IMG/VR virus record: IMGVR_UViG_3300011531_000036 | Span: 1 to 3,170 of that record | Length of the DNA stretch: 3,170 nt | Source of the DNA: a virus | Lineage: Duplodnaviria > Heunggongvirae > Uroviricota > Caudoviricetes | Strand: one strand, 5' to 3' | In this document: positions 1-3,170 of the stretch, piece by piece | How the letters are laid out: each line of letters starts with the position of its first letter | Position numbering within the stretch: position 1 is the first letter of the stretch | The notes under the pieces: model-generated | Told to the model about the DNA's origin: nothing | The model's database searches: none | What the model saw: the letters and a program-made list of their open reading frames with translations, nothing else | Program-made: the position numbers and the translations under genes

Positions 1-192
1 TCAGGAGCATTTCTGATTAACGCCACCGTTAAGAATCCACCCTTCAACAGCTTCACGAAGGTATGATTTGGGGTGGGTTCTGACTGGCTTCGGAAATCCG
101 TGCCGTTTGGTATAGTTCCAGATTGTCTGACGTGATGAAACACCGAGCTTGTTCATCACTTCTTTCTCAGGAATCAGGCTGGTATCGGTCAT
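1..192 (-). CDS. AlpA/Xis-family small helix-turn-helix DNA-binding protein, probable prophage excisionase or regulator (63 aa)
   Basis: Complete ORF: ATG at 192-190, TGA at 3-1. GGAG (plus-strand ctcc at 200-203) lies 7 nt upstream of the ATG. The segment LIPEKEVMNKLGVSSRQTIWNYTKRHGFPKPVRT...W has the AlpA/Xis pattern: a short helix-turn-helix with the 'TIW/TIY ... FPKP' signature and a conserved Trp near the C-terminus. Its position at the distal end of a leftward operon fits xis. Family call is from recollection, not a search. Confidence 0.7.
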   Translation of the reverse strand: MTDTSLIPEKEVMNKLGVSSRQTIWNYTKRHGFPKPVRTHPKSYLREAVEGWILNGGVNQKCS

Positions 193-206
193 CTTAATTC
201 TCCAGG

Positions 207-230
207 CAAAAATAAACCGCCATATAGCGG
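207..230 (-). terminator. Weak hairpin plus U-tract immediately upstream of the AlpA/Xis-like gene (candidate intrinsic terminator or attenuator)
   Basis: Plus-strand ccgc (217-220) pairs with gcgg (227-230). On the minus-strand RNA this gives CCGCU-AUAU-GGCGG (4 GC pairs plus one U-G), followed by UUUAUUUUUG (216-207). The stem is short, so stability is marginal. Alternative reading: the loop sequence TATATG could be a -10 element for the downstream gene. Confidence 0.3.
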
Positions 231-353
231 CTCTATCAGATATGAACAGGCCTCATCGAGTGTGAGGCTGGTTAGTCATTGCGTAGCTCGCTGATTATTC
301 TGTAAGTCTCTGGTGCTTTGCTATCTCACGCAGTGCCTGATAGTCAATCTTGT

Positions 354-593
354 TCACTGGTTGCCTCCTTTGCGGATCTGCGCTGCGATGCACGAAAAAA
401 AAGACTCCCGCGTATGACTGTTAAGAGCTGGCGCGAACGCTGCGTTAAGAACGGCAGCATCACAGCCGTCATCGATATAGAGCGCAATTTTTTTCTCCAG
501 GCGCGCTTTGGCTTCCTGCAACTGCATACCCCGGCACGCACGCGGGATATAATCAGCAATTTGAGCGATAGCTTTTTCGTTCTGTTTAAACAT
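354..593 (-). CDS. Hypothetical small phage protein (79 aa)
   Basis: ATG at 593-591 with GAGGT 5 nt upstream (minus strand). The start overlaps the stop of the upstream 67-aa ORF in an ATGTTTAA arrangement (shared nt 586-593). Balanced amino-acid composition. No family recognised. Confidence 0.55.
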   Translation of the reverse strand: MFKQNEKAIAQIADYIPRACRGMQLQEAKARLEKKIALYIDDGCDAAVLNAAFAPALNSHTRESFFSCIAAQIRKGGNQ

Positions 594-789
594 GCTTCAC
601 CTCGATAGGCTTGATGGTGTCTAACAGCAGTCGGCGGCGCGTATTTTCTGCAAAGTGGCGGCGTCCAGTTTCTTTGTGGTAAAACTCGTTTTTGCCGACG
701 ACCCACATCCGTTCTGTTTGGTGCAATTTTTTTACCTGCGGTCCATCTTTGGTGATCACGGTACCGGTATGGGTTTTTACGATTGTCAT
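586..789 (-). CDS. Hypothetical small phage protein (67 aa)
   Basis: ATG at 789-787 with GAGG about 7 nt upstream. The ATG overlaps the TGA of the upstream PAPS-reductase-like ORF as ATGA (786-789). No family recognised. Confidence 0.55.
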   Translation of the reverse strand: MTIVKTHTGTVITKDGPQVKKLHQTERMWVVGKNEFYHKETGRRHFAENTRRRLLLDTIKPIEVKHV

Positions 790-1664
790 GCCACTACCTC
801 TTCGAATTTCAACTCCAATTGGTCACCCCAGATTTCACATGATTCGGAACACGAACCAGTATCAAACCGCTTGGCCAGCACCATCGCCTGATACAAACTT
901 CTGTAGTCGCTGTCGGCATACATTCTGGCAATCCTGTCAAGCGTCAGGTGACCACGGTACATAACGTCTTTACCTGTTCTGCGATGACCATCCCGGACGT
1001 GTTTGCCTGTAACCAGTTCATTAAAAACCCGCATCAGACCAGGTTCGTCTTTACATGCGATCCCCAGCTTTTGCGTTGACTTTTTGATGCAGAAAACACA
1101 GTTCCCGAGGTGCTCCGGGATTTGCAAATCAAAAGGTTGTTTACGCCACCACCGGATAACATCCGACTTATCAAAATCTGACAGCTCGGCAAGATACCGG
1201 ACGCCCGGTTTCGGTTTCAGCCTACGGTGTTCGTCCGCACGAATACCCAGCCATGTGATGTAATTCCCTCGCCCAAAATGGTCATCGCAATATTTCGTGA
1301 AAGGGGTGAGTTTTAGCCTGTCAGTACAGAATGCGCCGCCGATGTATGGCGTACCGTACTTTTTAACCATGTCCATAAACGGTTTAAGCACCGGCATTCG
1401 CGTCTGAATATCCTTTGGTTCCCATTCCGTATAACCATTTGGCTGCCCAAGCTCTGGATTTATATCGACCTGCAACACAGTTAGCGGTATGCCCCAGAAC
1501 TTCACAACCTCCCGAATAAAGCGGTATGTCAGCGGATGTTCGCAACCGGTATCCATAAAGATGTAGCAGACGTTATTGCCAGCCTTTCTTTGTTCTTCCA
1601 TCAGGTGAACAAGATATGCAGATGTTCTCCCGCCAGAAAAACTAACTACATGAGTTATGCACAT
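786..1664 (-). CDS. Phosphoadenosine-phosphosulfate (PAPS) reductase family / PP-loop ATP-pyrophosphatase-fold protein, phage-associated (292 aa)
   Basis: ORF of 292 aa. N-terminal VVSFSGGRTSAY resembles the PP-loop SGGxDS motif. The segment FMDTGCEHPLTYRFIREV aligns by eye with the conserved CysH block ILTDTGYLFPETYRFIDEL. There is a CxxC (NCVFCIKK) and a C-terminal Cys cluster (GSCSESCEIW). The ATG at 1664-1662 lies 4 nt upstream of the upstream gene's stop codon (TAA 1657-1655; ORFs share nt 1655-1664), so the weak SD is compensated by coupling. Confidence 0.85.
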   Translation of the reverse strand: MCITHVVSFSGGRTSAYLVHLMEEQRKAGNNVCYIFMDTGCEHPLTYRFIREVVKFWGIPLTVLQVDINPELGQPNGYTEWEPKDIQTRMPVLKPFMDMVKKYGTPYIGGAFCTDRLKLTPFTKYCDDHFGRGNYITWLGIRADEHRRLKPKPGVRYLAELSDFDKSDVIRWWRKQPFDLQIPEHLGNCVFCIKKSTQKLGIACKDEPGLMRVFNELVTGKHVRDGHRRTGKDVMYRGHLTLDRIARMYADSDYRSLYQAMVLAKRFDTGSCSESCEIWGDQLELKFEEVVA

Positions 1665-2191
1665 TTGCGTAATTCCGATAACTCGTTGAAGCGTTCCATA
1701 AACATCCCGTAGGCATGGCCCGGTGCCAGTGGAATCACTTTGAACATCTCTGTTGCCGGGATACCTTCCAATACAGGCCAGAAAGAGCCATCATCAAGTC
1801 CGAGATCGCGGCGTTCGGTTGCCAGCATGATGAGATCGGCATATTTCACTGGCGTGCTCATAACAGGAGGTAACCCGTATTTCTCACGGATTACGGCGTC
1901 TATTTTTTCTTCCATCCGTTTATAGTCAGGAAGAAGTCGTTTCAGTGGTGCGGGGATGTCATGGCAATACGCTTCTGTTGCATCATGCATTAACGCTTCA
2001 AAAGCAAATTCCTGCGGCACCAGCTGGCTGCAAAGCACCGCATGCTGGGCGACACTGTAGAAGTGTGAAAGATGTCCTGCAAAGCGACAGATATTTGAAA
2101 GGGAAACCGCGATATCGTTAATAACGATGTCGTCTTTATTTATCTTGTCATAATAAAAATGCTTCCCGGAAAAAGTTTTAATAAATGACAT
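1655..2191 (-). CDS. yfdR: HD-domain phosphohydrolase, YfbR/YfdR-family 5'-deoxynucleotidase (178 aa from the ATG at 2191)
   Basis: HD motifs are visible: RFAGH, then ALMHDATEAYCHDIPAPLK, matching the YfbR-type block ALxHDAxEAxxGDxPxPxK. The preferred start is the ATG at 2191-2189 with GGAG 6 nt upstream; the ORF track's 187-aa version starts at an in-frame GTG at 2218 with no obvious SD. The 178-aa length and prophage context match my recollection of E. coli CPS-53 YfdR; the symbol is assigned from memory, not a search. Confidence 0.85.
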   Translation of the reverse strand: MSFIKTFSGKHFYYDKINKDDIVINDIAVSLSNICRFAGHLSHFYSVAQHAVLCSQLVPQEFAFEALMHDATEAYCHDIPAPLKRLLPDYKRMEEKIDAVIREKYGLPPVMSTPVKYADLIMLATERRDLGLDDGSFWPVLEGIPATEMFKVIPLAPGHAYGMFMERFNELSELRKCA

Positions 2192-2315
2192 TTTGTTCTC
2201 CACGTATATGCGCTGCACCGCGCTGAATTCGGGTAAAAGGAAGCCCTCACCGTCCGGCGATTATTGAGTCAATTACATTTCCATAAATGCCCCCGTAGGG
2301 GCGGTTAGTTTCTCC

Positions 2316-2404
2316 ACAAAACAGAGAAGAACACCTGCGGTGGCAGCCGCCCGGATGGATTGGGTTATGAGCCCGTCGTCCGGTGATGCTCTTCTCTGTT
2401 TTGT
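2316..2404. repeat. Perfect 15-bp inverted repeat (acaaaacagagaaga at 2316-2330, tcttctctgttttgt at 2390-2404) enclosing a 59-nt GC-rich insert that can form two further hairpins
   Basis: Verified base by base. Inner helices: gcgg/ccgc at 2337-2340/2347-2350, and ccggatg/cgtccgg at 2351-2357/2377-2383 with a nested ggg/ccc at 2362-2364/2372-2374. Overall a three-way-junction-like fold of 89 nt. Lies in a region without credible coding potential. Confidence 0.8.
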
Positions 2405-2449
2405 AAAAAGGACGGTACCAGCCGGAAGCAAGGGTACAAGCTGGTACCG
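2403..2449 (-). terminator. Candidate rho-independent terminator on the minus strand (10-bp GC-rich stem plus U-tract)
   Basis: Perfect inverted repeat cggtaccagc (2413-2422) and gctggtaccg (2440-2449) with a 17-nt loop. On the minus-strand RNA the stem is followed after 3 nt by UUUUU (complement of 2409-2405). The loop is larger than typical, so it may instead be a structured RNA element or protein-binding palindrome. Confidence 0.4.
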
Positions 2450-2480
2450 CCAAGACTACACACAGCATAAAGTTGTGGTG

Positions 2481-2500
2481 CCGGGTGCCTCCCGGTGCCT
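2481..2500. repeat. Tandem decamer ccgggtgcct / cccggtgcct
   Basis: Two adjacent 10-nt units differing at one position. The second unit overlaps a 6-bp stem, gcctgg (2497-2502) pairing with ccaggc (2516-2521). Confidence 0.7.
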
Positions 2501-2590
2501 GGCGAAGGTTGCACACCAGGCGGGTGGGTATCCACAGAAGGTCGACTGTCAGCCTCAACCTTAACCCGCGTGCGCTGAGCCGCATTCACC

Positions 2591-2720
2591 ACAACGCTAA
2601 GGATTCTCTCTGGTTGAAAATACTTAGCTGTTATGTGCCTGCTTTTAGCCACATCAGGCGAGGTGGACCTAGTTATTCCCCAACAACAAGGATTCGGTTA
2701 ATCTGGTTATCCCCAACAAC
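2591..2720. promoter_or_regulatory. Degenerate direct repeats upstream of the 144-aa ORF (candidate operator/iteron-like sites)
   Basis: gttattccccaacaac (2672-2687) and gttatccccaacaac (2706-2720) are near-identical, 34 bp apart; the second ends 15 bp before the ATG at 2736. A looser module, acaac..aaggattc..ctgg, recurs at 2591-2613 and 2682-2705. No convincing sigma-70 -35/-10 pair could be placed by eye. Confidence 0.45.
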
Positions 2721-2735
2721 GTAAAAGGAAAAGAA

Positions 2736-3170
2736 ATGTCCGGTAATATCTATACGCTGTACAAATCCCACTGTGAAAATGTTGGAAAGTATCGGGGCAT
2801 TGAAATCAGTGGGGTAGTGTCATCAGTCGAAATAAGCAAAGTTGAATCAAGGGCAACATTACTTACTCTTTTGGACCTTGTTTTACATGAGCACCGGAAG
2901 AAATTCGGCACTCCCTATAATCAGTTGAATGGGAAAAAGGCTCTGGTTCACCTTATTCTGATGAAGCATCACTGGATGCCAAAACAGATTAATGAGATGA
3001 AATTTGATGAACTTCTTCTTTCAATTCAGGATGAACTCACACTTGATAAAATAAGCGTAACCGCCCAGAAATTTTTAGATTATCGAGACTGGAGATCACA
3101 AATTCATCACTTTGATGATTTTGACGAAAATGAATGGGATCCTAATTTGTCTGCACAATATCTAAAGTAA
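2736..3170 (+). CDS. Hypothetical orphan protein (144 aa), AT-rich moron-like gene with an acidic C-terminus
   Basis: Complete ORF: ATG 2736 to TAA 3168-3170, with AGGA 6 nt upstream (2726-2729). No competing ORF on either strand. About 38% GC by hand count (2741-3170), against about 58% in the adjacent non-coding region. C-terminal third is rich in D/E (HHFDDFDENEWDPNLS). No family recognised. Confidence 0.75.
   Translation: MSGNIYTLYKSHCENVGKYRGIEISGVVSSVEISKVESRATLLTLLDLVLHEHRKKFGTPYNQLNGKKALVHLILMKHHWMPKQINEMKFDELLLSIQDELTLDKISVTAQKFLDYRDWRSQIHHFDDFDENEWDPNLSAQYLK

Follow-up and report, generated by a model that had tools for sequence, protein, structure and literature searches.

A conserved three-way-junction element of lambdoid prophages with a tip resembling the anticodon arm of initiator tRNA

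What kind of element is closed by a perfect 15-bp inverted repeat in a non-coding stretch of a tailed-phage genome is the question raised by the present locus. The window, that is, the whole stretch of DNA that was analysed, comprises 3,170 nt (positions 1 to 3,170 of IMG/VR record IMGVR_UViG_3300011531_000036, Caudoviricetes), and the element in question occupies 89 nt of it, at positions 2316-2404. A preliminary description had seen in these 89 nt a three-way-junction-like structure, and had left open whether this represents a discrete RNA domain or a DNA cruciform or protein-recognition (recombination or packaging) site; a hairpin of the kind found in retrons had also been considered, with no reverse-transcriptase gene in view. 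The available data show that the inverted repeat closes, as helix P1, a conserved three-way-junction structure, that the family to which this structure belongs occurs widely among lambdoid phages and prophages of Enterobacterales and lies outside the Rfam 15 library, and that one core is portable between two transcript contexts. The best supported placement, though not a proven one, is that of a minus-strand RNA of the prophage early-left operon, situated between the terminator of a DicF/STnc100-like small RNA (sRNA) and the early genes. The model that we favour, at about even odds (roughly 0.5), is that this predicted RNA may be excised from a longer transcript and act in trans as a tRNA mimic.

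The repeat itself is as it had been described. Plus-strand positions 2316-2330 (ACAAAACAGAGAAGA) are the exact reverse complement of 2390-2404, with all 15 positions pairing across a spacer of 59 nt. This is the longest perfect inverted repeat of the window at spacers of up to 100 nt, and at least 15 bp with such a spacer was reached in 1 of 1000 dinucleotide-preserving shuffles of the window, which upholds the earlier judgment that it is unlikely to have arisen by chance. Imperfectly, the repeat extends to 25 nt at 84%, and on the minus strand, where two G-U pairs are formed, the closing helix reaches 20 bp without interruption. On both strands the 89 nt fold into the closing helix plus two inner hairpins, at -45.4 kcal/mol (z -6.1) for the plus and -45.5 kcal/mol (z -7.3) for the minus strand, with no equal among 200 shuffles in either case, so that the term three-way-junction-like was well chosen. 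Read on the minus strand, the whole element (2404 to 2316) runs from P1 through an unpaired A, a lower stem P2 that carries the tip, a hairpin P3 and a second unpaired A back to P1'. The 5' arm of P1 (ACAAAACAGAGAAGAGCAUC, 2385-2404) forms 20 pairs with its 3' arm (GGUGUUCUUCUCUGUUUUGU, 2316-2335), among them the U-G and G-U wobbles available on the minus strand only. The 5' arm of P2 (CCGGACG, 2377-2383) forms seven pairs with its 3' arm (CAUCCGG, 2351-2357), one position being a conserved C.A or U-A. The near-invariant tip ACGGGCUCAUAACCCAAUC (2358-2376) consists of a GGG/CCC stem and the 7-nt loop CUCAUAA, in which CAU lies at 2369-2367, and P3 (GCGG CUGCCA CCGC, 2337-2350) varies in sequence while its pairing is kept.

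Evidence for this fold comes from an alignment of 76 distinct homologues (A1), in which the structure tested comprised P1 of 20 bp, an unpaired A, P2 of 7 bp, the apical GGG/CCC with its 7-nt loop, P3 of at least 4 bp and an unpaired A. Standard pairs fill 93.9% of the 2296 pair cells versus 40-52% after a shift of the 3' partners by 1-3 columns, and both-sided changes are found at 10 of the 34 pairs, amounting to 133 cells versus 40 +/- 5 in column shuffles, with support from all helices but the invariant GGG/CCC. P1, with 95.5% of its cells paired and six pairs changed on both sides, is conserved in both length and pairing through compensatory changes, and a single central mismatch is tolerated in many copies. 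The two arms of P2 likewise co-vary, with G-C to U-A and A-U to G-C compensatory changes between the two subfamilies described below, and P3 has double changes in two of its four pairs. A covariance model (R1), made from 30 sequences of both subfamilies (alignment A2), scores 85.1 bits on the window (E 4e-20, minus strand 2329-2391) and finds exactly one match in each of 100 loci totalling 972 kb. The alignment that it generates, both subfamilies included, is 93.8% paired versus 28-48% when slid, with double changes at 7 of 16 pairs. Both arms of the repeat and both inner hairpins therefore co-vary in homologues, the check that the preliminary description had proposed, and its idea of a discrete RNA domain is borne out. 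That description did not recognize the minus strand as the most likely sense strand, the tip as a copy of the initiator-tRNA anticodon arm, or the existence of a sister form in phage tRNA arrays.

The assignment to the minus strand derives mainly from context, as the G-U pairs alone express too weak a preference for a strand call (132 G-U versus 71 A.C cells; pairing of 93.9% on the minus versus 91.3% on the plus strand); if the plus strand were the sense strand, one conserved C.A of P2 would become a G-U pair. The orientation of the element is always that of the surrounding operon genes and of the upstream terminator, and in the arrays it is that of the tRNAs and the trailing R-CCA (R being A or G), while no sigma-70-like promoter was detected on either strand between 2100 and 2850. 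Considered with the covariation, these features make it very likely that the element is a conserved structured RNA of the minus strand.

The tip is where the resemblance to tRNA resides. The reference used, the E. coli initiator tRNA, was verified at 100% identity in 5426 of 5426 genomes, at a median of four places in each and annotated as tRNA-Met. Its best local alignment with the element (CGACGGGCUCAUAACCC / CGUCGGGCUCAUAACCC) has 16 of 17 positions identical, with an exact run of 14 nt, and spans tRNA positions 25-41 with the stems and the loops of the two in register; matches to elongator tRNA-Met, tRNA-Ile2 and phage tRNA-Met extend over 7-9 nt only. Three G-C pairs and a CUCAUAA loop are hallmarks of the initiator anticodon arm, and in the element the loop CUCAUAA, with U33 and CAU, is conserved, position 37 being U in Salmonella and Klebsiella variants and in a common UC variant. 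Sampling anchored on the adjacent gene yfdP is less biased; in it, 76 of 80 loci carry the element, in 46 distinct sequences; 15 of the 19 tip columns are invariant in these, and 13 of the 20 columns of the P1 5' arm vary. Such variation as the tip displays falls mostly at loop positions 37/38 (AA, UA, UC), with two other columns in addition. Judged from this likeness, the element is probably a tRNA-derived mimic.

A second line of evidence is provided by the genomic frame, which differs between two subfamilies, class A (131 copies, the window included) and class B (15 copies, from Klebsiella/Raoultella-type phages). P1 measures 20 bp in class A and 6-7 bp (GGCCUG / CAGGCC) in class B. Upstream, a T-tract lies within 12 nt in 128 of the 131 class A copies, whereas in 14 of the 15 class B copies a tRNA gene (Arg-UCU, Asn-GUU, Thr-UGU or Phe-GAA) ends 6 nt away. 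Downstream, class A has GGAGA within 14 nt (130/131), represented in the window by the conserved GGAGAAAC directly 3' of the element (2308-2315, minus), whereas class B has [A/G]CCA in 15/15, the sequence beyond it differing; this R-CCA is found in 0/131 class A copies. In several Klebsiella phages the core stands directly 3' of tRNA genes, on the tRNA strand and between Q and the lysis genes. A U precedes the class B stem, the first pair is G-C, and the 6-nt gap resembles the 5-6 nt that separate the tRNAs of an array, so that, judged by these features, class B would in effect fill the last tRNA slot of the phage array. A U at -1, a G-C first pair, an acceptor-like stem and R-CCA are features of RNase P and tRNA-processing substrates. 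Both insertion points, the early-left region and the tRNA arrays, are hot spots for accessory genes. The yfdP-anchored sample further contains three loci (L317, L323 and L326, ~1040-1155) in which the 20-bp P1 is kept with a shortened P2 and the loop GGGAACUAACCC, one (L314, ~1030-1150) in which it surrounds an unrelated interior, and one (L309, ~1100-1200) in which the sRNA end, the terminator and the element are absent as a single block.

The family defined in this manner is large. Pattern scans of a one-genome-per-species collection place the three-way junction in lambdoid phages or prophages of ~23 species of Enterobacteriaceae and Erwiniaceae, and matches of the genome scan outside Enterobacterales were set aside as chance, all of them being without P1 and P2 and in unrelated sequence. 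Of 5426 complete E. coli genomes, 2490 (46%) contain the 89-mer, in 1-5 copies (median 1), and it is annotated there as nothing or as a hypothetical protein. Carriers include SfII/SfIV/SfV, mEp460, the Stx2c phages and ST64B as well as Klebsiella, Citrobacter and Pantoea phages; a BLAST search of phage genomes with the 89 nt gave full-length copies of 81-85% identity in the Salmonella phages ST64B, 118970_sal3 and F1055 and in one Klebsiella phage, with core-only matches in Citrobacter, Pantoea and Klebsiella phages, and pattern scans added 119 further viral contigs. A dispersed intergenic repeat of the REP or ERIC kind, or a miniature inverted-repeat transposable element (MITE), had to be considered, and was rejected: the median is one copy per E. 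coli genome, the 1-5 copies of some genomes all share the same prophage context, each phage has one, always between the same flanking modules, and no dispersal outside prophages was seen. Nor does the element belong to a catalogued family, as none of 4227 Rfam models (C4, DicF, STnc100, YrlA, tmRNA, int-alpA, STAXI and EFASI included) overlaps it, the cut-offs being E <= 1 for the window, the gathering scores for 18 homologous loci and E <= 10 for subfamily B. The core sequence string had no match in the literature searched or in the Pas sRNA supplement. The element thus appears to be an undescribed, uncatalogued and very common phage RNA motif with putative partial tRNA mimicry.

A mechanism that would unite these observations requires first that the structured module be freed from a longer transcript. 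In class B, the acceptor-like stem and R-CCA may attract RNase P together with the enzymes that process tRNA 3' ends; in class A, the 20-bp P1 duplex may instead recruit RNase III, which would cut the module from the read-through transcript. P1 has the duplex length of an RNase III site (~20 bp, near-uninterrupted), the cleavage itself being a prediction. As one core occurs in two frames, and as the class A frame sometimes holds other interiors, the arrangement can be described as cargo and cassette. The excised small RNA, of ~65-90 nt, would act in trans, and since the near-invariant part of the cargo is an initiator-type anticodon arm, its partner should be a factor that normally reads that arm, to which the RNA would offer a copy. 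The most plausible partner may be a tRNA-cleaving toxin or immune nuclease, for which the RNA would serve as a decoy in counter-defence; the initiation machinery, e.g., methionyl-tRNA synthetase (MetRS) or the 30S P site/IF3, is a less likely one. A nuclease is favoured because the insertion points are accessory-gene hot spots and because class B arrays carry tRNAs (e.g., Thr-UGU) of a kind reported to counter tRNases. VapC of Shigella and Salmonella cuts initiator tRNA in the anticodon loop. Fragments of tRNA generated by VapC have also been mentioned (PMC9879122), and P2 Old is reported to deplete Thr(UGU), fMet(CAU) and other tRNAs, infection being rescued by phage tRNAs (bioRxiv 10.64898/2026.07.10.737580). 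That the element is a decoy or inhibitor of nucleases attacking initiator tRNA (VapC-type toxins, Old-family or similar abortive-infection tRNases), released by RNase III or tRNA enzymes, is nevertheless a speculative conjecture, and in this specific form a rather unlikely one.

Several observations weigh against the trans-acting tRNA mimic. Most copies were gathered by tip-seeded patterns or BLAST, which inflates the apparent invariance of the tip; loop positions 37/38 are variable, and a pyrimidine at 37 is unlike real tRNAs. The element has no D arm and no T loop, the 14-39 nt spanned by P3 in class A mean that a strict tRNA shape is not kept, and the subfamily of the window has no CCA end, its 20-bp P1 being followed by GGAGAAAC where a tRNA would have a 7-bp acceptor stem. 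It is not a tRNA gene: ARAGORN in standard, relaxed and mitochondrial modes finds none in the window or in either subfamily, and the Rfam tRNA model RF00005 gives no match at E <= 1 in the window or at E <= 10 in subfamily B. The base-pair statistics favour the minus strand weakly, as given above, and the link to tRNA-cleaving nucleases is circumstantial. Finally, the retention of P1 around altered interiors (L314; L317, L323 and L326) suggests that P1 may itself be the functional unit, and a role in cis is suggested by how tightly the element is coupled to the U-tract before it and to GGAGAAAC after it.

The alternative that survives best builds on these last points. It proposes a cis-acting processing or stability cassette, in which P1 serves either as an RNase III site or as a 5' structure parting the sRNA from the early mRNA and setting the stability or translation of the latter, the interior being a passenger. 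P1 is long, conserved and co-varying over its full length; the element abuts the terminator U-tract in 128/131 copies and GGAGAAAC in 130/131; and P1 encloses another interior in L314 and a shortened one in L317, L323 and L326. The arrangement also resembles that of DicF, longer forms of which arise via RNase III processing, and a homologous leader block stands beside dicF: in the Qin prophage of K-12 an STnc100-like block follows the dicF terminator (L248 840-990), although the three-way junction is absent near dicF in Qin. However, a cis cassette leaves unexplained why the tip is the most conserved part and why the P2-P3 core recurs in tRNA arrays with a short P1, R-CCA and no GGAGAAAC, and the gene downstream differs among copies (yfdP, rdgC-like, yfdR or holin). 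We regard it as a possible, though not a likely, explanation.

A further scenario would have the element act as an antiterminator RNA like put of HK022, binding RNA polymerase and replacing N in lambdoid phages that have no N. The phage group does have no N homologue, and antitermination of the put type has been suggested by the authors of the LLS genome (PMC12315714), in which the early-left leader contains two intrinsic terminators; the two side-by-side hairpins of the element are also reminiscent of put (PMC9378689). However, the element lies downstream, not upstream, of the leader terminators, and in its sister subfamily the location is a late operon, after Q and tRNA genes. Each genome has a single copy without a putR-like partner, R1 finding no second copy in the whole LLS genome or in the 972 kb of loci; on the HK022 int-to-replication region its best match reaches 11 bits (E 0.64), in AT-rich sequence and on the wrong strand. 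Further, put is an open V of two stem-loops, whereas the element is a closed three-way junction (PMC9378689). A put-like function is therefore improbable.

Still less probable is that the signal belongs to the other strand or to the DNA, as a plus-strand antisense RNA, a cruciform or protein site (recombination, packaging), or a real YmfH-like coding gene. The folding energy is equal on both strands, the C.A of P2 becomes a G-U on the plus strand, where pairing still reaches 91.3%, and RefSeq has ORFs (open reading frames) annotated over the region. Against this, a promoter-like site was not found nearby on either strand, the hairpins are nested and the conserved loops non-palindromic, and R-CCA and the orientation of the tRNA arrays make sense on the minus strand only. 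As indels are limited to one hairpin of this nested structure, the cruciform, recombination or packaging site of the preliminary description is not supported. As for a coding gene, the gap between 2219 and 2735 bears a frameshifted hypothetical gene in RefSeq and corresponds to ymfH in the e14 prophage of K-12. The annotated YmfH-like ORF (2247-2585, minus; L002 3978-4289 in e14) runs across the element, the terminator and the sRNA end; it carries a frameshift flag in the identical genome and belongs to no Pfam family. The homologues differ by indels of 1-25 nt, in P3 only, that disrupt every reading frame. Because of the broken frames and the missing Pfam family, the ORF is most likely spurious. 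In a high-throughput screen, an e14 'ymfH' clone was listed as a trigger of the retron-Sen2 RcaT toxin; this clone includes the decayed e14 element together with the adjacent sRNA end, and the triggering could be an RNA effect. An equally improbable scenario, a functionless fossil or selfish element (a captured tRNA-gene fragment or MITE-like repeat spread by mosaic recombination), would account for a tip identical to a host tRNA stretch, for module boundaries that coincide with mosaic joints, for the loss of the whole block from L309 and for the decayed loop of the defective e14 copy (GGGUUAAUAACCC; R1 51.8 bits versus 85), but there is hardly any chance that it is correct, given that three helices show compensatory changes, that conservation across genera is strongly biased towards the tip, that each phage has one copy in constant orientation and context, with no dispersal seen outside prophages, and that decay is seen in the defective prophage only.

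Two further candidates were rejected. The element is not an intrinsic terminator, in agreement with the earlier exclusion of a plus-strand one: the outer stem is A/U-rich and is followed by GGAGAAAC on the minus strand or AAAAAGG on the plus strand, a U-tract being absent after the element on both. The msr/msd of a retron, which had been considered earlier, fails likewise, as the proteins of the window (Xis/AlpA-like, PAPS-reductase-domain, YfbR-like HD and ECs1072-family) include no reverse transcriptase, just as had been stated.

The surroundings of the element are themselves ordered. The window is the early-left arm of a lambdoid prophage, and the minus strand corresponds to the pL direction because a CI-type repressor and cro sit further right in the same genome. 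The 517-nt non-coding stretch that holds the element matches E. coli LR-06 at 100% identity and closely resembles Shigella phages SfII/SfIV/SfV, mEp460, cdtI, the Stx2c phages and others. Ahead of the element lies an STnc100-like/DicF-like sRNA region (2402-2625, minus), which matches Rfam RF02076 over its full length at 43.4 bits (E 2e-7), below the gathering score of 47, and has a weak Rfam DicF match over the 3' hairpin of the STnc100-like RNA. The intrinsic terminator of this sRNA (2405-2451, minus; stem 2440-2451 / 2410-2422, U-tract 2405-2409), where the STnc100 alignment ends, is the true terminator of the region and is conserved in class A loci. A conserved single-stranded GCUGUGUGUAGUCUU (plus coordinates 2452-2466) precedes it, and the element begins at 2404, the base immediately after the U-tract. 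Downstream, GGAGAAAC is followed by a small co-varying hairpin (2289-2302, minus), which reads GCCCCUACGGGGGC, GGCGGUGGCAGCCGCC or GACCUUGCAGGGUC in 20 aligned diverged loci; its loop is often UUGCAG or UGGCAG, and the same loop is seen in P3 of some variants. The order is constant in the 20 loci: GCUGUGUGUAGUCUU, terminator, element, GGAGAAAC, co-varying hairpin, Shine-Dalgarno sequence and a variable gene (yfdP, rdgC-like or yfdR), a holin gene being a further downstream neighbour among the copies. In LLS, the corresponding order is a predicted pL (TTGACC-17-TAGATT), two intrinsic terminators, the element, and yfdP with its own Shine-Dalgarno sequence. That GGAGAAAC might be the Shine-Dalgarno sequence of the next gene was discarded on account of the GAGGG that this gene has of its own in LLS, and so was a leader peptide (an ORF opening GUG/AUG-GAG-AAA after P1), as frames, lengths and peptides are unconserved and one variant has ACG.

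The remaining genes of the window on the minus strand are a YfdR-type HD 5'-deoxynucleotidase (YfbR-like HD protein, 2191-1655), a PAPS-reductase-domain (PP-loop) protein of 292 aa with an N-terminal domain and SFSGGRTS motif, common in Stx phages (1664-786), two small ORFs between 789 and 354, and an AlpA/Xis-like excisionase (192-1); an ECs1072-family gene occupies 2736-3170 on the plus strand. Unlike SfIV, ST64B and LLS, the window is without yfdP and yfdQ (DUF2303) between the element and yfdR, and a remnant tiny ORF, ATGGAAATGTAA, is seen at the junction left by their absence (2191-2290 of the window versus L003 3535-5000). On the other side, a small hairpin at 2639-2662 (CGCCUGAUGUGGCUAAAAGCAGGC in the minus sense) is conserved in many related loci. 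Its LLS counterpart (L247 ~32225-32250) lies ~25 nt past the predicted pL and before the two leader terminators, and the hairpin is a candidate early-leader signal of phages that have no N. Two copies of GTTGTTGGGGA(T/A)AAC (minus-strand reading), 30-40 nt apart at ~2678-2730, are situated between the ECs1072-family gene and the leader and look like operators. In E. coli 2014EL-1346-6 (L249 434-2400), ISEc62 of the IS21 family interrupts the locus exactly at the border of the sRNA terminator with the site of the element. A possible empty site, suggested by the partial BLAST class H17, proved to be an IS21 insertion and not a precise absence. In the early-right region of ST64B (L007 5720-5908), the genes for isrK and the C4 antisense RNA are adjacent, both above Rfam gathering scores.

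If the model proposed here is correct, a structured RNA has been left unannotated in nearly half of the sequenced E. coli genomes, often beneath spurious ORFs like ymfH, and the same RNA would be carried by the classic phages SfV, ST64B and mEp460 and the Stx2c phages, and in decayed form by e14. The copy of the initiator anticodon arm and the slot in tRNA arrays would link the element to the ways in which phages cope with tRNA-cleaving immunity, and, were the decoy to be confirmed, it would represent an RNA-based counter-defence, unlike the known supply of resistant replacement tRNAs. On a more modest reading, a portable RNA module and a conserved RNase III-type cassette would be added to the poorly understood early leader of lambdoid phages that have no N. 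Annotators, in addition, gain grounds to drop a family of false genes of the ymfH type.

The element can be compared with several known systems. With put of HK022 it shares the character of a cis-encoded structured RNA with two adjacent hairpins in the early operons of lambdoid phages that have no N. However, put stands just after the promoter and ahead of the terminators, one copy per early operon (PMC9378689), and identity with it was rejected, the element being closed by a long helix, placed after terminators, present in a single copy and without covariance-model similarity. DicF, STnc100 and PasD are, like the element, prophage-borne RNAs of lambdoid phages, and the neighbourhood is the same, the element following directly on a DicF/STnc100-like terminator (bioRxiv 10.64898/2026.05.13.724894). 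Those RNAs, however, are Hfq-type sRNAs that end in an intrinsic terminator, whereas the element, a separable module, has neither its own terminator nor an obvious single-stranded seed; PasA-D are set apart by their description, being encoded in the late region and ending in terminators. The tRNA-cluster RNAs species 1 and 2 of T4 are small, stable and of unknown function, and C4 (phages P1 and P7) and CI (phage P4) RNAs are matured by RNase P. All of these are small structured phage RNAs co-transcribed with tRNAs or a leader, released by tRNA enzymes via an acceptor-like stem and bearing a CCA-like end, to which the element would be comparable. However, the Rfam C4 model misses the element while finding a true C4 elsewhere in ST64B, and C4 and CI act by antisense pairing within their own operon; no conserved complementary target of the element turned up, in work that included no systematic search for one. 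The tRNA-like mimics (YrlA Y RNAs, the tRNA-like domain of tmRNA and mascRNA) copy the acceptor/T-arm half of tRNA. The element is like them in being a non-tRNA RNA that appears to copy part of a tRNA, as these do for recognition by tRNA-binding or processing proteins, but it has no Rfam match, and the part copied is the anticodon arm, with an acceptor-like end in subfamily B as well. From tRNA proper it differs in having no cloverleaf, D arm or T loop, in an internal loop where tRNA has pairs 27-43 and 28-42, in a position 37 that can be U and, in the form carried by the window, in a 20-bp closing helix without CCA. It nevertheless has the 7-nt loop CUCAUAA with U33 and CAU and the three consecutive G-C pairs of initiator tRNA, and subfamily B shares with the tRNA genes of phage arrays the slot within the array, the 5-6 nt spacing, the U at -1, the G-C first pair and the R-CCA.

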